Positions 10,222 through 42,361 of a stretch of 42,497 nucleotides of DNA are shown one piece after another. Below the pieces are notes generated by a model. That model saw nothing but the letters and a program-made list of their open reading frames with translations. It did not search any database and was not told where the DNA came from. Both the position numbers and the translations under genes were made by a program. The stretch comes from a virus (taxonomy: Duplodnaviria > Caudoviricetes). The DNA lies in the IMG/VR virus record IMGVR_UViG_3300037423_000981, positions 1 to 42,497 of that record, one strand, 5' to 3'. How positions within the stretch are numbered: position 1 is the stretch's first letter; each line of letters begins with the position of its first letter.

Positions 10222-10601
10222 ACTGCCTTCGAAACGAATACCCGGTTAACGCGAAATCAATTTCGCCATCGCTGTTCGGCAAGCCAAGCAAGCGCTCAAT
10301 CCGCGCCGCTGTAAAGCAGATGATACTCGACGTTCAGGCGTCGAATGGCCTCTCTGACGAAGAGCTAGCTGAGGTCATTGGCGGCTGCAAAGAGACCGTC
10401 GCCAACTGGCGCGAAGAAGCGTCCACCATGAACACCGAGGCACTACTTCTTTTCGCCTATTGCTTCGGCGAGGACGCGATTGCGCCGGTTCGCAACCTCT
10501 ACCTGTATGCGCCACCGCAGGGCGATGAAAGCCCCGCTAAGAAGGTCGATCGACTTTACCGCGAACTGGCCCGCGCCATTCAAGAGGAGCGGGGGGAATG
10601 A
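10212..10601 (+). CDS. CII-like HTH regulator
   Basis: LSDEELAEVIGGCKETVANWRE HTH; position after cro. Confidence 0.7.
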   Translation: MYMNCLRNEYPVNAKSISPSLFGKPSKRSIRAAVKQMILDVQASNGLSDEELAEVIGGCKETVANWREEASTMNTEALLLFAYCFGEDAIAPVRNLYLYAPPQGDESPAKKVDRLYRELARAIQEERGE

Positions 10602-11449
10602 GCGCGCCCAATCGTCCTCTTCTTCGTTGGCACGGTGGCAAGTGGATCCTCGCGCCATGGATCATCAGTCACTTTCCTGCGCATCGCGTGTATGTCGAGC
10701 CTTATGGCGGAGCGGCTTCTGTCCTTATCCGAAAGGAACGTTCGTACGCGGAAGTCTATAACGACTTAGACGAAGATGTCGTGAACCTGTTCCGCGTCAT
10801 GCGGAATAGCGCGCAAGCTGCCTCCCTCACGCATCATCTCTACTATACGCCGTTTGCCCGCCAAGAGTTCGATGAGGCCTACGAAATAACTGACGATCCT
10901 GTGGAGAGGGCGCGGCGGCTTATCATCCGCAGTTTCATGGGCTTTGGTAGTGACGGACACAATGGTGCGCGTCACACAGGCTTTAGGGCAAACAGCAATC
11001 GTTCAGGAACGACGCCGGCCCATGATTGGGCGAACTATGGTGACGCGCTTTGCGAGATCATCACACGAGTAAGCGGCATCGTCATTGAGAACCGCCCTGC
11101 TCTGGATGTGATGGCGCAACAGGATGGTCCGGAAACCCTTCATTACGTTGACCCGCCCTACGTTTGGGAGACTAGGTCCAAGGGCAGGAACTCATCTCGG
11201 AAGAATTATCGCCACGAGATGAATGACGCTGACCACAAGCAGCTGCTCGAGTTTTTGCAGTCGCTTGATGGCATGGTGGTCCTATCTGGCTACGACAACC
11301 AAATCTACGCTGATTACCTGGATAACTGGCGTCGAGTTGAGCGAGCTTCTCTAGCCGATGGTGCCCGCCCCAGAATCGAAGTCCTTTGGCTCAATCGAGC
11401 GGTATCCGAACGTCTCGGTCATGGGCCGTTGTTCTCGGAGGCAGCATGA
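10598..11449 (+). CDS. dam: Dam-family (D12) N6-adenine DNA methyltransferase
   Basis: RWHGGK, VEPYGGAASV, YNDLD, YVDPPY. Confidence 0.9.
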   Translation: MSAPNRPLLRWHGGKWILAPWIISHFPAHRVYVEPYGGAASVLIRKERSYAEVYNDLDEDVVNLFRVMRNSAQAASLTHHLYYTPFARQEFDEAYEITDDPVERARRLIIRSFMGFGSDGHNGARHTGFRANSNRSGTTPAHDWANYGDALCEIITRVSGIVIENRPALDVMAQQDGPETLHYVDPPYVWETRSKGRNSSRKNYRHEMNDADHKQLLEFLQSLDGMVVLSGYDNQIYADYLDNWRRVERASLADGARPRIEVLWLNRAVSERLGHGPLFSEAA

Positions 11450-11637
11450 ACTTCATCCGCAACTGGCTCTTCGTTCGCCGCCATCACCACTCCTGTAACC
11501 GCACAATCGCAAGCGCTCGTGAGCTGGCGTGTGAAGCATTGGCTCGCGATGTCGAGAAACGGCGCAATAGCTTTGAGGTTCAGGATTACCGGAAGCGCCG
11601 TGAAGCTGCGCTGAAGCGGACGCGGGGGTTGGCGTGA
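11446..11637 (+). CDS. Hypothetical protein
   Basis: ATGA/GTGA coupling. Confidence 0.6.
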   Translation: MNFIRNWLFVRRHHHSCNRTIASARELACEALARDVEKRRNSFEVQDYRKRREAALKRTRGLA

Positions 11638-12599
11638 TGTTTCGCGTGCTTAGCCTCTTTGCCGGAATCGGCGGCTTCGACCTTGGTCTGGAGCGGACGG
11701 GCGGTTTCGAGACCGTCGCGTTCTGCGAGATCGATCCGTTCTGCCGACGCGTGCTCGAGAAGCACTGGCCCGAGGTTCCCTGCTATGAAGATGTCAAAGA
11801 GCTTACCGGAGAACGTCTCAGAGCAGATGGAGTTGCCGTCGATTGCATCGTTGGCGGCTTCCCGTGTCAAGATATCAGTGAGGCAGGAAAGGGGCTTGGC
11901 CTGGCGGGGGAGCGGAGCGGACTATGGTCCGAAATCGCTCGTCTGGCTAGCGAGCTTCGACCGCAATTCATCATCGTGGAGAACGTCGCAGCGTTGCTTG
12001 GTCGAGGGCTGGGAACGGTTCTCGGAGACTTGGCCTCGCTCGGGTATGATGCTGAGTGGCACTGCATACCAGCTGCCGCCATTGGCGCTCCGCACCGCCG
12101 CGACCGTATTTGGATCATCGCTTATCCCAACGCCGACAGCGGGCGACTTCAAGAGCACGGCGAACGCGACAGCTGGACGACGCGAGGACTCGGAGCATCA
12201 CAGCGGAGTGACGCTGACGGACTTTGTGCGCCTGTGGCCGACACCGAATGTGGCGGGCGGCGGCAATCCTCCCGATCGGCTGAAGAAGCACGGAAATCAT
12301 TATGTGAGGCCGTCAGGGAAGAAGGCCCATCTATCGTTGGATCAGGCGGTGAAGCTTTGGCCTTCGCCAACCGCTCGGGACACAAAGGGGCGGGATGCGA
12401 ACTGCCGAGAGGGCGGCCCATCCTTACCGGAAGCGCTCTACAGGACTTCGGGCAGTGGGAAACTGAACCCTCCGTGGGTCGAGTGGCTGATGGGATACCC
12501 GATTGGTCACACCGAATTAGATCGCTCGGAAACGCCGTAGTTCCCCAAATCCCTGAGCTTATCGGTCGCGCAATTCTCGAAGCAGAGCGCGCTGCATGA
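11634..12599 (+). CDS. dcm: C5 cytosine DNA methyltransferase, alpha chain (motifs I-VIII and X)
   Basis: FAGIGG, GFPCQD, ENV, HRRDRIW, LGNAVVP; motif IX absent from this frame. Confidence 0.92.
   Translation: MMFRVLSLFAGIGGFDLGLERTGGFETVAFCEIDPFCRRVLEKHWPEVPCYEDVKELTGERLRADGVAVDCIVGGFPCQDISEAGKGLGLAGERSGLWSEIARLASELRPQFIIVENVAALLGRGLGTVLGDLASLGYDAEWHCIPAAAIGAPHRRDRIWIIAYPNADSGRLQEHGERDSWTTRGLGASQRSDADGLCAPVADTECGGRRQSSRSAEEARKSLCEAVREEGPSIVGSGGEALAFANRSGHKGAGCELPRGRPILTGSALQDFGQWETEPSVGRVADGIPDWSHRIRSLGNAVVPQIPELIGRAILEAERAA
11659..12540 (+). CDS. C5 methyltransferase beta chain in the overlapping +1 frame (motif IX and PTP repeats); start uncertain
   Basis: 293-codon open frame ending KLNPPWVEWLMGYPIGHT. 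Confidence 0.75.
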   Translation: MPESAASTLVWSGRAVSRPSRSARSIRSADACSRSTGPRFPAMKMSKSLPENVSEQMELPSIASLAASRVKISVRQERGLAWRGSGADYGPKSLVWLASFDRNSSSWRTSQRCLVEGWERFSETWPRSGMMLSGTAYQLPPLALRTAATVFGSSLIPTPTAGDFKSTANATAGRREDSEHHSGVTLTDFVRLWPTPNVAGGGNPPDRLKKHGNHYVRPSGKKAHLSLDQAVKLWPSPTARDTKGRDANCREGGPSLPEALYRTSGSGKLNPPWVEWLMGYPIGHTELDRSETP

Positions 12600-13066
12600 C
12601 CCCACAAACCCAAACACCTCCAGAGGGGTCGGTGCTGATCGAACTCGCAAGCGTGAGCATCGTTGTTCCAGGCGCTCCAGTGCCAAAGGGTCGGCCAAGG
12701 CTCTCGACCATCAACGGCCAAGCGCGCGCTTTCACGCCCACCAAAACGCGCCGTTACGAGGATCTTATTCGTCTTGAGGCTGGGCATGTGATGGAAGCAC
12801 GCGCTCAGCTTCAAGGCCCCACCAGCGTTCGCATCCGCGCCTACATGCAAATGCCCCAGGCAATGGCGAAGAGCAAGTTCAAGTCCCAGAGCGCGGAGGC
12901 TGGTGTTATCCGCCCGCTCACCAAGCCAGATGTAGATAACTTCGCCAAGGTCATCGATGCCCTCAACGGCATCGTCTGGCCCGATGATAACCAAGTCGTC
13001 GAGCTAACGGTAGAGAAGTTCTATTCAGCGCGGCCACGGCTCGAGCTGACGGCGAGCGAGCTGTGA
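12596..13066 (+). CDS. rusA: RusA Holliday junction resolvase
   Basis: PVPKGRPR, KPDVDNFAKVIDALNGIVWPDDNQV. Confidence 0.92.
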   Translation: MTPQTQTPPEGSVLIELASVSIVVPGAPVPKGRPRLSTINGQARAFTPTKTRRYEDLIRLEAGHVMEARAQLQGPTSVRIRAYMQMPQAMAKSKFKSQSAEAGVIRPLTKPDVDNFAKVIDALNGIVWPDDNQVVELTVEKFYSARPRLELTASEL

Positions 13067-23263: not shown

Positions 23264-25840
23264 ATGTACTTCGTCGGCTCGAAATCAGGCGGTTACTCCT
23301 CCACCAGCACGCAATCGATCTCACTGACGAACCTGCTTGGCATCGGGGGCACCTCGCTCACCGTCAAGCAGAACGACCTGGTGATTGTCAGTGTCTCGCA
23401 TTCGATGGCGACGACAGCCAGCAGGACACTGGCGCAGCTCACCCCGGTTGATCCATCTGCGGCAAACTATAGCAGCCCGCTCGGTTCGTCGGTCCAGTCC
23501 AACGATACCAATGCTGTCTCGCTCGGTCTGTTCTACAAGTTCATGGGGTCCACCCCAGACGCAACGGTAACGCTGCCGGCTTGCGCTGCTTCGACCAACA
23601 GCATTGCCTACACAATTGCGATTTGGCGAGGCGTCGATCAGACCACTCCATTCGCGGGGGTAACGGTCACAACGGCGAGCGGGGCCAATACAGGTCTTGC
23701 TGATCCGCCATCGGTCACAACCCCGACAACGCCCAAGGATTGCGTTGTAGGTGGCGCGTTCGGTGCGGCTGTCGCTTCGGCTAGTGTCTTCACGAATAGC
23801 GGGGCCACGCCTTACGACACGGCGACCAATCTCTTTTCCTCGGGCGTTCAGAACACGGCCACCAACCGCTCTGTCAGCGGCATGGGGTTCAAGCGTGGGA
23901 TGGCCGTCAGTACCGCGTTCAATGCGGCAATTACTGGCTCGACGACGACAAATACAGGCTCATGGGCAGCGGTTGCTTTTGTCCTCAAGCCAGACACAAG
24001 TCTTTCTGCCGGTTCAACTCTTACGGACGACTTCAGCTCCGATAGTCTGACATCCGGAACGCCTGACGGGTTCAACCAGAATGCGGCCTGCACCGCCACG
24101 GTAACAGGCGGCGAACTCGTCATTCAACCAGACAATGCGACAGTCGGCTATAATGGGCGATACAGCAGCGCATATTATTCACTACGCGGGCAGTCGATCT
24201 ACGCTGCGCTAACTCAAGCGCCGAGCGGGGTGACCAATCCCGGCTTCTCGGACACGTTCTTTGGCTTCGCTTCGGACGATCGGGGAAACATAGGAATAGG
24301 AGTCTACGTCAACGGGGCAGGAGCGCTAACTCTGCGTCGTGGGCCAAACGGCGCCGATATTGGTTCGGGCACGTCCTACAATTCTACCAACCACTTCTTC
24401 TTCCGCATCTCGCACAACGACGCCAACGACCACCTCCTGCTTGACGGAGCTCCGAACAGCAGTGGTTCGCCAGGAACGTGGACGAATATCTATGACGTTT
24501 CCCGCCCGGTGGACGTGGACGTTGACTGCGGTCAAATCGCCTTCATTGGCGGCAACTTTGGCGGCGGTTCGACCCCGGGTGCGATCAAGTGGGACGGGCT
24601 TAATACCTCGCTAAGTGCCGGGACTTCCGTAGCGCTCACCGGTCAATCCGTATCTGGTGCGATTGGGGCGCTGCTGGCGGCGACTGCTCTGGCATTGTCA
24701 GGCGGTGCCCTCACAAGCTCTCAGGGAACGGTACAGCAGGGAGCGCCCTTAACCGGTCAATCTGTTGCTGCAGCCAAAGGCACGGCCTCTGGCGCTATCT
24801 CTGTCGCGCTCACAGGCCAATCGCTTTCGGTCGCACAAGGCAGCGTCTCGCTCGCAGGTCCGACCCTCACCGGACAATCTGGAACGGTTGCCCAAGGGAC
24901 CGCGGTTCCCGTCACGTCGATCGGTCTTACCGGACAGGCGCTTTCTGTCGCTCGCGGGACGGTCGCGCCAACATCAGCGCCAGTCCTCAGTGGGCAGGCC
25001 CTAGCCAGTGCTCAAGGGTCGGTGCTGCAGGGCGCTCCAATCACCGGGCAAGGCACGGCTGTAGGTCAAGGCTCGGCTGCGCCCATTGTGTCCGTTGGCC
25101 TCACTGGCCAATCGGTTTCAGGCTCAAGCGGCTCGGTCTCGCCCTCTTTCGCCCCAGCGCTTTCAGGTCAAAGTCTCACTGCGGCAGCGGGTTCTCTGGT
25201 TGCTGCCCGGAGCTTCGGTTTAAGCGGACAGTCTGTGGCCGGGTCGCAGGGGTCGGTCCTCGCTTCCTCCACCCTCGCACTGCTCGGGGGATCTCTCACC
25301 GCCTCGCAAGGTATCGTCACGGTCGCGGGGTCGTCCAACGTCACCGCTGCACTAACCGGCCAACCGCTAAGCGTTGCTCAGGGTTTGCTCACGTCCTCGA
25401 GCAGCGTTGGCGTTACCGGACAGCAGGCGACTGCAGCCAGAGGCTCGGTCATTGCTGCCCCCAGTATCGGTCTAAGCGGGTCCGCCACGCAACTGGCACA
25501 GGGGAGCATCAGCGCGAGCAGGTCGGTTGCTCTGACCGGTCAATCCCTCACCAGCGGGCAGGGAAGAGCGACATTCAGCCCGACTCTGACTGGCCAAGTC
25601 GCTGTCGTCAGTCTCGGCACGCTGCTACCGAGCATATCGCCTGCGTTAGCGGGGCAGGCACTCACTCTCGCTCAGAACGACCTGACGACGCGCCCTGCTG
25701 TTACCTACCCGTTGGCGGGCGTCTCGCAGCCCTATCCAGGCGTACCGCAAACCTATGACGCGCTCCCCGCTCAGCCGTACCCAATAGATACCGCTCAAAC
25801 CTATCCGCTGGAGGGCAAGAGCCAGAATTATCCGCTGTGA
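23264..25840 (+). CDS. 858-aa structural protein: N-terminal beta domains, 18 L[TS]GQ repeats, YP-repeat tail
   Basis: Translation; position between capsid and head-tail adaptor genes. Confidence 0.8.
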   Translation: MYFVGSKSGGYSSTSTQSISLTNLLGIGGTSLTVKQNDLVIVSVSHSMATTASRTLAQLTPVDPSAANYSSPLGSSVQSNDTNAVSLGLFYKFMGSTPDATVTLPACAASTNSIAYTIAIWRGVDQTTPFAGVTVTTASGANTGLADPPSVTTPTTPKDCVVGGAFGAAVASASVFTNSGATPYDTATNLFSSGVQNTATNRSVSGMGFKRGMAVSTAFNAAITGSTTTNTGSWAAVAFVLKPDTSLSAGSTLTDDFSSDSLTSGTPDGFNQNAACTATVTGGELVIQPDNATVGYNGRYSSAYYSLRGQSIYAALTQAPSGVTNPGFSDTFFGFASDDRGNIGIGVYVNGAGALTLRRGPNGADIGSGTSYNSTNHFFFRISHNDANDHLLLDGAPNSSGSPGTWTNIYDVSRPVDVDVDCGQIAFIGGNFGGGSTPGAIKWDGLNTSLSAGTSVALTGQSVSGAIGALLAATALALSGGALTSSQGTVQQGAPLTGQSVAAAKGTASGAISVALTGQSLSVAQGSVSLAGPTLTGQSGTVAQGTAVPVTSIGLTGQALSVARGTVAPTSAPVLSGQALASAQGSVLQGAPITGQGTAVGQGSAAPIVSVGLTGQSVSGSSGSVSPSFAPALSGQSLTAAAGSLVAARSFGLSGQSVAGSQGSVLASSTLALLGGSLTASQGIVTVAGSSNVTAALTGQPLSVAQGLLTSSSSVGVTGQQATAARGSVIAAPSIGLSGSATQLAQGSISASRSVALTGQSLTSGQGRATFSPTLTGQVAVVSLGTLLPSISPALAGQALTLAQNDLTTRPAVTYPLAGVSQPYPGVPQTYDALPAQPYPIDTAQTYPLEGKSQNYPL

Positions 25841-40215: not shown

Positions 40216-40811
40216 TGAGCGGCCTTGCCGGCCTTGGGCTGCTCGCGAAGCTCGGCGGGGCTAAAGCCACGCTTGCGAAGGTACCGCCCAAGGTCTGGTA
40301 TGGTCTCGCCATCGTGGCAGCGGTCGTCGGCAGTTTCTTCGTCCATCAGCACTACGCCCACAAGGCACTGAAGGCCGCTGACGCCTCGGGATACAACCGC
40401 GCTCGCCAAGAGGACGCCAAGGTCATCGCTCAAATGCGAGTCCGAGCAGAGGCCGCCGAAGCGAACGCCAAAGCTATCTCACAGGACACAAGGAACCGCA
40501 ACGATGAAACGAACCGCCGCATTGCTTCTAGCGCTGACGCTCTGCTCGTGCGCGGGCCGGGAGCGGCCAGTTGCCGACGCGTCAGTAATCCCACCGTTTC
40601 CGCCTCCAGCAGTCAACCTCGCGCGTCCAGTGGGGCCGGAGATGCTGCCGCAAGTCCAATGTCTTCAGATGACGGGACAGCCGCAGTGCCGTGGGTCTGG
40701 CTCGTCAACTCCTCCCGCGAAGCCGACCTCAACCGCGCCGAAGTCCTGAGTTGGCGCGACTGGTACCAACGCCAGAGCGCGGAGTGGGCCAAGCTACGGA
40801 GCAAGCCATGA
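40215..40811 (+). CDS. Rz: i-spanin (Rz-like)
   Basis: N-terminal TM, periplasmic coiled coil, embedded lipoprotein ORF. Confidence 0.8.
   Translation: MSGLAGLGLLAKLGGAKATLAKVPPKVWYGLAIVAAVVGSFFVHQHYAHKALKAADASGYNRARQEDAKVIAQMRVRAEAAEANAKAISQDTRNRNDETNRRIASSADALLVRGPGAASCRRVSNPTVSASSSQPRASSGAGDAAASPMSSDDGTAAVPWVWLVNSSREADLNRAEVLSWRDWYQRQSAEWAKLRSKP
40504..40749 (+). CDS. Rz1: o-spanin lipoprotein (Rz1-like), embedded in Rz
   Basis: Lipobox LCSC; Pro-rich; alternate frame inside Rz. Confidence 0.8.
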   Translation: MKRTAALLLALTLCSCAGRERPVADASVIPPFPPPAVNLARPVGPEMLPQVQCLQMTGQPQCRGSGSSTPPAKPTSTAPKS

Positions 40812-42361
40812 ATAGATTCCACGTTCTTCTCCTCGCGTTGGTGCTCCTCATCGGAGTGATGCTGTTCGCCTGTCCAGCACATGCTGCCAGTCAACCTCCG
40901 ATCATCACCGTTCCCGATGTAACCTGCGTCGAGAATGCATCCTGTACGCTCATCGTCACCAAGACCAAGGCGAACAGCTACTCGCGTATTCAACTGACTA
41001 GCGTTGACGGAACAGCCAAGGCGGGAATCGACTACCGCGCGCTCAACGCCATCTACACACTGTCGAATAACCAGACGCAGCTATCCGTACCACTGAGCCT
41101 GATCGACAATTCCAGCTATCAGGGCTCGCGTACATTCGCGGTCAGGATCACCGTGCTTCGCTTTGCCCAAGTTGCGCCTGGCTATGTTCCGCCAACGGTC
41201 ACGATCACCGATGACGAGACGCCTCCACTTCCACCACCTCCGTCAACAGGAGTGGCCGGCGAGACACCCATTGCCGACAATTTCGACGTATCACAAGCGA
41301 TCGAGCAGACATGGTACGGCCCTCTCGGCAGGGGAGGAATAGCTCCAGCTTCAGCCGATCCTGTAGGTGCCTTTCGCGAGTTCTGCGCACCGGGCCAGAT
41401 CCTCAGGGACGACCCGATGGTCTATGCTGGCCAACCCGGAGCCTCGCCGCATCTCCACCAGTTCTTTGGCAACACCGGAACGACCGGAAATTCCAATTAC
41501 AACAGCCTCAGGACCACGGGACAATCCACCTGCGGCAATCGAGGCTCAAGCACTCCGACGAACCGCTCGGCATATTGGATGCCCGCAATGCTCGACGGAG
41601 TTGGTAACGTAGTCAAGCCCGACTACATGAACCTATATTACAAGCGGAATCCCGCCTCAGACCCATATTGTAAATCTCCCGACCTCGGCGGAATCGGGAT
41701 TTGCACAGACCTCCCCAACGGCATCCGGTTCATCTTCGGCGCCAACATGAAGACCATGACCGATGGTCCCACCGATGTTAATTCCCAGAATCACGACGCG
41801 ATCACCTTCCAATGCTGGGCGAGCTTCGACAACTCGGTGAGCAACAACGGCCTCAACGCTTATTATCATTCTATGGAAGAGGTTCGCGCAGCGGGTTGCC
41901 CGGTTGGTGCTCGGCTGATGATTATAGCCGCAGCACCCAATTGCTGGGACGGGGTGAACCTCGATTCAGCAGACCACAGATCACATATGACATGGTCGAA
42001 CGGAGCGATGTATCCCGGCCAGTTCTTTCGTGCATGCCCGTTGGATCATCCGTACGTCATTCCCAATCTCGAGGTACAGGTCGCCTATACGATCGACGCC
42101 AATTTCGTCGCCGGCAAATGGCTACTCGACAGCGATCGGCAGATGGATGCAAGCGGGATGCAGGTTGTCCCTGGTTCGACCTGGCACATGGATTATTGGG
42201 AAGCGTGGAGCCCTACGGTCAAAGCGACTTGGCACCGTACCTGCATCAACCAGAAGCTGTCATGCGCTGGTGGAGACTTGGGAGACGGCACCGATATTCT
42301 GAAGGCCGACCATTATCCTAATACGGACTTTCCAACGCATGTGCTGGTGCCGGTGCCTTAG
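40808..42361 (+). CDS. Secreted Calx-beta plus DUF1996-like domain protein
   Basis: Signal peptide ending AHA; DGTAKAGIDY..VTITDDE; RDDPMVY.G...PHLHQFFGN, NRSAYW.P, PNCWDGVNLDSADHRSH, HMDY. Confidence 0.85.
   Translation: MNRFHVLLLALVLLIGVMLFACPAHAASQPPIITVPDVTCVENASCTLIVTKTKANSYSRIQLTSVDGTAKAGIDYRALNAIYTLSNNQTQLSVPLSLIDNSSYQGSRTFAVRITVLRFAQVAPGYVPPTVTITDDETPPLPPPPSTGVAGETPIADNFDVSQAIEQTWYGPLGRGGIAPASADPVGAFREFCAPGQILRDDPMVYAGQPGASPHLHQFFGNTGTTGNSNYNSLRTTGQSTCGNRGSSTPTNRSAYWMPAMLDGVGNVVKPDYMNLYYKRNPASDPYCKSPDLGGIGICTDLPNGIRFIFGANMKTMTDGPTDVNSQNHDAITFQCWASFDNSVSNNGLNAYYHSMEEVRAAGCPVGARLMIIAAAPNCWDGVNLDSADHRSHMTWSNGAMYPGQFFRACPLDHPYVIPNLEVQVAYTIDANFVAGKWLLDSDRQMDASGMQVVPGSTWHMDYWEAWSPTVKATWHRTCINQKLSCAGGDLGDGTDILKADHYPNTDFPTHVLVPVP

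Follow-up and report, generated by a model that had tools for sequence, protein, structure and literature searches.

A nested gene in a phage replication region

The window, i.e., the entire 42,497-nucleotide stretch of DNA analysed, covers a virus record in its entirety, has direct terminal repeats, and encodes an integrase, a repressor, a RecT-like protein, a terminase, a portal protein, and head and tail proteins. The integrase, repressor, terminase, portal, head, and tail genes therefore identify it as a temperate tailed phage. Its replication region contains a gene that is read in two frames, flanked on one side by a D12 adenine methyltransferase gene (10598-11449) and on the other by a RusA gene (12596-13066); no endonuclease partner was recognised beside it, these two genes being its neighbours. 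With the D12-class enzyme encoded directly upstream, two orphan methyltransferases lie side by side in this phage. By its motifs and family matches, the dual-frame gene encodes a predicted cytosine C5 DNA methyltransferase, laid out as two chains, with alpha in the main frame and beta nested in the +1 frame. Motifs I-X of both chains are named according to the established C5 methyltransferase nomenclature. The features of the locus are as follows:

11637..12599, + strand: alpha chain, 320 aa, with C5 cytosine methyltransferase motifs I-VIII and X (ATG start; GTG 11634 as alternative)
11772..11776, + strand: likely ribosome-binding site GAGGT of the nested gene (duplex energy -7.1)
11785..12540, + strand: likely beta chain, 251 aa, +1 frame (stop depletion, PHROG 1008, length and start region as in the related protein P0005)
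12031..12123, + strand: conserved beta segment WPRSGMM..., over alpha motif VII (beta alignment; predicted pairing with alpha 138-156)
12124..12234, + strand: cassette 1 (IPTPTAG...LTDFVRL), 37 aa, in 73 of 841 related proteins (a set enriched through being searched with the window's beta) at many array positions
12235..12357, + strand: cassette 2 (WPTPNV...LDQAVKL), 41 aa, in 58 of the same enriched 841, 53 of them without cassette 1 or 3
12358..12456, + strand: cassette 3 (WPSPTARD...LPEAL...), 33 aa, adjoining motif IX, in 9 of the same enriched 841
12457..12501, + strand: motif IX, beta frame, GKLNPPWVEWLMGYP (beta pN/pS 0.25, alpha 0.88; predicted packing on alpha motif X)
12528..12545, + strand: motif X (GNAVVP), alpha frame (alpha pN/pS 0.20, beta 1.36)

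The initial annotation had assigned motifs I-VIII and X to the main frame, and their positions could be located, with motif I at 11649, IV (GFPCQ) at 11856, VI (ENV) at 11979, and VIII at 12096. The Pfam match of alpha to PF00145 (E 8e-44, 150.9 bits) covers residues 2-167 only; alpha also matches PHROG 363, as well as TIGR00675 at 121.2 bits, above the cut-off of 100.65. Residues C77, E115, and N116 (of the catalytic PC and ENV) are invariant in 140 sequences, as are G298, N299, and P303 of motif X in the alpha alignment. The C5 methyltransferase motif set is thus complete across the two chains, with IX in beta and X in alpha; the motif-IX-like segment expected in the +1 frame was found after the third module.

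No stop interrupts the +1 frame between 11638 and 12540, a span of 300 codons from stop to stop, or 293 aa when counted from TTG 11659. That this openness is due to chance is disfavoured, as the frame stayed open over alpha codons 50-300 in just 49 of 5000 synonymous recodings of alpha. While the 293 open codons of the initial annotation are indeed present, their whole length is not the likeliest beta chain: +1 stops occur in relatives at approximately the expected rate up to alpha codon ~55-60, so beta is probably shorter. The best start is ATG 11785, preceded by the GAGGT Shine-Dalgarno sequence and yielding a product of 251 aa, the length of the close relative P0005. This start falls on aligned alpha codon 49. 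Among the 36 loci that have a start codon there and keep the frame open, 78% possess a strong Shine-Dalgarno sequence, compared to 20% of 117 others; at aligned codon 57, the corresponding values are 86% of 35 loci with a start and 9%. No such enrichment was found at starts on aligned codons 63, 68, 136, and 137. Starts at TTG 11659 and at ATG 12046 were set aside in view of the stop and Shine-Dalgarno statistics.

Further along beta, the WPRSGMM segment stands in the same register as W37-M42 of the EcoHK31I-type beta chain and is homologous to a PRAG segment in one-chain relatives (both described below). Beta has no model in Pfam, NCBIfam, or PADLOC, and its profile gave no match at E 10 to the sequences of solved structures; among clusters at 50% identity, of any gene layout, the profile matches 51,041 (E up to 0.001) and 12,605 (1e-30).

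Selection by reading frame and the predicted complex

The two-frame layout is widespread. Across 240 viral and metagenome loci (from three scans, each the best 80 of ~600 candidates), 229 combine an ORF for motifs I-VIII and X with a +1 ORF that contains motif IX; two of the other 11 have a stop in alpha, and nine are cut by contig ends or are without a detected motif. All 80 of these loci that were retrieved with alpha as the query have motif IX in the +1 frame. Bacterial and archaeal genomes contain the same arrangement, with 74 of 80 loci nested likewise (69 of these 74 with a motif-X-like alpha tail) and four in which alpha ends before IX; named hosts include Proteobacteria, Actinomycetota, Spirochaetes, and Verrucomicrobia, among others.

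For stop counts and pN/pS, the 230 loci of complete layout were reduced to 202 full genes, and then to 153 genes without near-duplicates. Stops in the +1 frame of relatives, proposed at the outset as a sign against a nested gene, are found near the expected rate across alpha codons 1-60 (437 observed vs 502 expected) and nearly vanish across codons 61-165 (11 vs 730); the +2 frame is not protected and keeps its stops in the same 153 genes. Conversely, beta-synonymous recoding would be expected to create ~634 alpha stops across the cassettes, for which the 153 genes have 0 by construction and the 240 loci have two with a stop.

Protein-level constraint, measured as pN/pS from disjoint gene pairs region by region, follows the frames in turn. 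It lies on alpha over codons 1-45 (alpha 0.19, beta 1.81) and 70-110 (alpha 0.23, beta 1.37), such that beta upstream of approximately alpha codon 110 is kept open, yet without constraint as a protein, and is more evenly distributed over motifs VI-VIII (alpha 0.33, beta 0.69). Over the cassettes, in three identity bands (125, 60, and 6 pairs), beta pN/pS is 0.30, 0.17, and 0.07, and alpha pN/pS is 1.75, 2.85, and 2.56. As cassette groups had been defined by beta similarity, pairs were also re-picked on DNA similarity alone; these 50 pairs differ at beta codon positions 1, 2, and 3 by 0.13, 0.07, and 0.37, respectively, with 301 of 301 matches in phase. Among the differences listed from public contigs (mixed relatives), the four at 12307-12450 are all silent in beta while changing alpha, and three of them fall inside cassette 2. 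The anticipated switch of purifying selection to the +1 frame over the cassettes was therefore observed, and as alpha pN/pS exceeds 1 there, alpha in this region behaves as filler that must stay open, in keeping with the proposal that the main frame merely avoids stops.

Overlapping conserved motifs always leave some shadow in the other frame, and the +1 frame could in principle be nothing but such a shadow, with alpha working alone; however, this is contradicted by the depletion of stops, by the switch in pN/pS, and by the presence of motif IX in the +1 frame only, leaving the idea with practically no weight. Alternatively, a single chain could result from a programmed ribosomal frameshift that leads from alpha, after motifs I-VIII, into the beta frame. 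One-chain relatives with this motif order do exist, and a DNA frameshift joins the frames in a few loci (L282 and L391). Nonetheless, the +1 frame is already protected from approximately alpha codon 60 onwards, long before motif VIII is reached, and codons 49 and 57 have starts linked to Shine-Dalgarno sequences; motif X remains in alpha, so that a second shift would be required; and a shift after VIII would skip the conserved beta segment over motif VII. We consider such frameshifting very unlikely. In L282 and L391, the frameshift lies in the last cassette region and moves motif IX into the alpha frame, these being either real variants or assembly errors.

For separately made chains, an association between them was predicted. 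Alpha was co-folded with beta 45-251 in the presence of SAH, alongside three controls. The complex scored 0.91 vs 0.01 for the best control (of 157 solved complexes, 116 reached the mark for this score, as did 2 of 215 mismatched pairs). This pass may stem from a resemblance to the solved structures of one-chain C5 enzymes, which would apply equally to the halves of any split gene. Overlapping codons can also create covariation between the alpha and beta alignments. Separate runs agreed in at least 64% of contacts, with a partner pLDDT of at least 57. Beta 225-245 is predicted to contact alpha 293-303 along with residues 11 and 39, and beta 81-107 to contact alpha 138-156. Loss of beta residues 37-50 is described as abolishing EcoHK31I activity in vitro (PMC2836561), and the predicted interface includes the equivalent beta segment. 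With stop depletion, the pN/pS frame switch, and co-folding all having come out in favour of the heterodimer proposed initially, alpha and beta very probably form one.

A shuffled cassette array in the probable recognition slot

The position of the cassettes within the enzyme is best seen in relatives with a single chain. A search for longer forms detected one-frame proteins with motifs I-VIII, cassettes, IX, and X; the catalytic region and motif IX occur together in 50 of 330 proteins, a few of which are probably broken genes. Profile comparison equates the one-chain form with alpha 1-168 plus beta 75-248 (probabilities 100 and 99.6), so that the cassettes come to lie between motifs VIII and IX, a slot with 0-6 counted cassettes in the one-chain relatives. 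In C5 enzymes, this slot carries sequence recognition according to PMC3404938. The predicted structure of a three-cassette one-chain protein (mean pLDDT 76.6, upstream cassettes under 50) aligned with M.HhaI over 272 residues (Z 26.3, rmsd 2.8); that of a one-cassette protein (P0253, which is without catalytic motif IV) has a mean pLDDT of 87.8, cassette included, and aligned over 224 residues (Z 18.4, rmsd 3.2).

The three modules noted initially near 12124, 12235, and 12358 were found at those starts in the +1 frame. Across the 153 genes, 446 cassettes were counted, at 1-7 per gene and with a median of 36 aa, falling into ~179 rough clusters (46 with at least three members, 111 singletons) and 129 arrangements. 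Cassettes start at W-P-T-P and finish at L..AV.M, with conservation at the DNA level lying at the junctions. Arrays differ between close relatives: within the 202 full genes, the array is the same in 53 of 65 pairs with catalytic regions at least 97% identical, but in only 5 of 643 pairs at 80-90% identity; at 90-97% (56 pairs), 11 have the same array, 32 have some cassettes in common, and 13 have none. Cassettes of the window also occur mostly apart from each other, with 70 of the 73 occurrences of cassette 1 lacking cassettes 2 and 3, and cassette 1 is present in one-chain relatives as well. Cassette exchange in the hidden frame, as initially suggested, is borne out by these comparisons. Mapped onto the alpha tree, cassette-group presence changes nearly as often as with shuffled labels (21 changes vs a mean of 25, and 6 vs 10); some tree signal persists, so exchange is not free.

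Tandem interchangeable modules between VIII and IX are a feature of multispecific phage C5 methyltransferases, and they are present here. Compared with the recognition regions of SPbeta MtbP and Streptococcus phage MM1 ORF13, the cassette profile matched neither significantly (best scores ~0 bits or below), its best, non-significant alignments falling on the PT[LI] motifs of these proteins; the term "recognition domain" for the cassettes therefore draws on their position and behaviour, which point to a probable role in recognition. Whether each cassette reads its own target is a narrower question, and we regard true multispecificity of this kind as an evenly balanced prospect.

Two other accounts of the array bear on this. 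In the first, the enzyme would have a single specificity: only the last cassette would dock, with those upstream forming a stored reserve that becomes active once recombined into the last position. Cassette 3 (beta 189-200 and 214-222) is the only cassette with confident alpha contacts in the predicted complex, upstream cassettes are of low confidence in the one-chain model, and certain cassette groups are found preferentially at the end of the array (in the largest, 24 of 27). However, a model of a single conformation can fit one cassette only, even if all were to take turns. Upstream and last cassettes are also equally constrained (0.18 from 50 pairs and 0.20 from 32 pairs), and 10 of the 23 larger cassette groups are never in last position, making a single specificity improbable. 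In the second, cassettes would jointly form one domain, either composite or of relaxed specificity, or would bind a partner protein, instead of being independent readers of DNA. This would suit their shortness (median 36 aa) as well as the lack of a significant sequence match to known recognition domains. Nevertheless, each cassette of the window is mostly found without the other two and at varied positions, and one cassette fills the small-domain slot in the confident model of P0253, which leaves joint action less probable still than a single docking cassette.

Taken as a whole, the locus is probably best explained as a two-chain C5 methyltransferase with shuffled recognition cassettes in its nested beta chain. 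Each cassette of 33-41 aa would comprise a WPTP anchor, a variable loop, and a short L..AV helix. Cassettes would dock by turns into the small-domain position, allowing one gene to mark several sequences in the manner of the tandem recognition domains in Bacillus phage enzymes. The comparison of relatives shows cassettes being gained, lost, and swapped in whole codons, probably via recombination at the conserved WPTP junction. For its part, alpha would need only to remain stop-free across the cassettes in order to reach motif X. The likely role of the enzyme would be to methylate phage DNA during replication as a protection against host restriction; we infer this from the position among replication genes and the fact that no endonuclease was recognised beside the gene.

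Known systems and alternative splits of the enzyme

M.EcoHK31I of E. coli recognises YGGCCR, belongs to a restriction-modification pair, and has one specificity. Its beta chain is encoded wholly within the alpha gene in another frame, with I-VIII and X in alpha and IX in beta (PMC2836561, PMC3404938). With a published EcoHK31I beta primer as the query, a matching E. coli gene was found (80 of 5426 genomes). One such E. coli locus, L402, encodes a 309-aa alpha and a 176-aa +1 beta adjacent to a NotI-family endonuclease; as at least one residue differs from the primers, it is a near relative of M.EcoHK31I and not necessarily the same gene. L402 resembles the window in its +1 beta, in which a W..SGM segment overlies motif VII and motif IX immediately precedes X, with the same register at both ends. 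Unlike in the window, PTP cassettes are absent from its beta, the start of which is at alpha codon 104 instead of 50. The window beta profile matches the EcoHK31I-type beta only weakly (9.9 bits, pairwise E 2.5e-5), and no endonuclease was recognised beside the gene in the window, its neighbours there being D12 methyltransferase and RusA genes. Moreover, the predicted recognition domain of M.EcoHK31I is reported in alpha (PMC3404938, PMC2836561), whereas the variable region of the window has alpha pN/pS at 1.75-2.85 and beta at 0.07-0.30. The parallel with M.EcoHK31I drawn in the initial annotation thus holds for the nested frame, the motif split, and the register, but not for the recognition domain, which these sources describe in its alpha, nor for the cassettes, which its beta lacks.

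Phage genomes contain further counterparts. In Streptococcus phage MM1, ORF14 is annotated as a DNA methyltransferase gene nested in the +1 frame, starting at alpha codon 51, and corresponds to the N-terminal portion of beta by profile match (38.8 bits, pairwise E 3e-14); in contrast to the window, ORF14 has 141 aa without cassettes or motif IX, while ORF13 has the variable region, IX, and X. In Paenibacillus larvae phage Tadhana, the annotation names both nested genes (gp54/gp55) DNA-cytosine methyltransferase, and the +1 frame contains three WPTP-type cassettes as well as IX; that annotation is by similarity only, and the genes are listed in PMC6070908, in the accessible text of which their overlap is not discussed. 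Mycobacteriophage Perplexer (gp76/gp75) has the beta segment and cassettes as in the window, but its alpha ends after VIII, with IX and X on the +1 chain as in M.AquI. The second chain of M.AquI reportedly carries both of these motifs. In Perplexer (L403:1062-2157), the start of gene 75 has probably been called too late, as the conserved beta segment lies upstream of it, within gene 76 and in an open +1 frame shared with gene 75. Besides L403, motif X is also on the beta chain in P0006, P0171, and L314. Together, motif-X-in-beta, MM1-type, EcoHK31I-type, and one-chain forms constitute a series of different splits of one enzyme.

Orphan C5 enzymes of temperate Bacillus phages (SPbeta MtbP and its kin) carry several recognition domains between VIII and IX and protect against many restriction systems, as described in PMC12707154. 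SPbeta MtbP differs from the enzyme of the window in having one chain in one frame, and its variable region has no significant sequence match to the window cassettes. Relaxed-specificity m5C enzymes of Paracoccus and Sinorhizobium prophages, considered as a precedent, were set aside, being described in the accessible sources as proteins of ~700 aa with no overlap. The two-chain nested layout is thus already known from M.EcoHK31I and is annotated in MM1 and Tadhana. For a cassette array on the nested chain, no published account was found in a mostly open-access literature, with older primary reports outside its scope, and the accessible portions of PMC3925955, PMC5537653, PMC6536676, PMC6070908, and PMC2884959 do not describe such a layout. 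What is apparently new, as judged from sequence, is that the variable region, shuffled and composed of several modules, has been displaced into the nested chain.

One-chain forms may retain traces of an overlap. PR[AS]G follows VIII in 37 of 41 one-chain forms (shuffled mean 0.7), like the WPRSG of beta, and, resembling the alpha reading of the motif IX DNA, W..EP..RV follows IX in 31 of 41 (shuffled mean 1.6, maximum 13); the spacing from IX to X is 38 in one-chain forms vs 20-21 in SPbeta MtbP and MM1 ORF13. When the same idea was tried with short profiles, 1 of 41 and 0 of 41 reached 10 bits, a weak outcome. Among the best 80 loci of a viral scan with the one-chain alignment, 72 were nested and no clean one-chain locus was found. 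As a hypothesis favoured by the motif counts, one-chain forms may have arisen through "unzipping" of the overlap, with both readings placed in tandem.

More broadly, a very large phage family (i.e., tens of thousands of 50%-identity clusters, without a Pfam or NCBIfam model) may have moved DNA recognition into a hidden +1 frame, with hundreds of cassettes of 30-45 aa recombined into arrays of 1-7 providing programmable multispecific anti-restriction methylation and with one-chain forms having been unzipped later, a scenario that we put forward tentatively and at slightly less than even likelihood. If each cassette reads one sequence, these arrays would amount to a library, provided by nature, of small and exchangeable modules for DNA recognition, much larger than the few Bacillus phage examples, and a cassette-to-motif code would be readable from expressed arrays combined with methylomes. 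This would also explain many orphan phage methyltransferases that seemingly have no recognition domain. The locus is also a case of an annotated frame serving as filler while the frame nested within it evolves under selection.

Several further features were observed. In P0144 (13 member sequences), a beta-type protein with at least three cassettes and motif IX is fused in frame to RusA, which in the window is also encoded directly after the alpha/beta gene. An antisense ORF of 281 codons (12149-12994, minus strand) overlaps the cassettes and RusA, and is probably a by-product of the overlap. Elsewhere in the window, an 858-aa ORF (23264-25840) among the head genes has no Pfam or PHROG match, and a 556-aa protein (40691-42361) with Calx-beta and DUF1996 domains, encoded after the lysis genes, is a possible accessory gene product.
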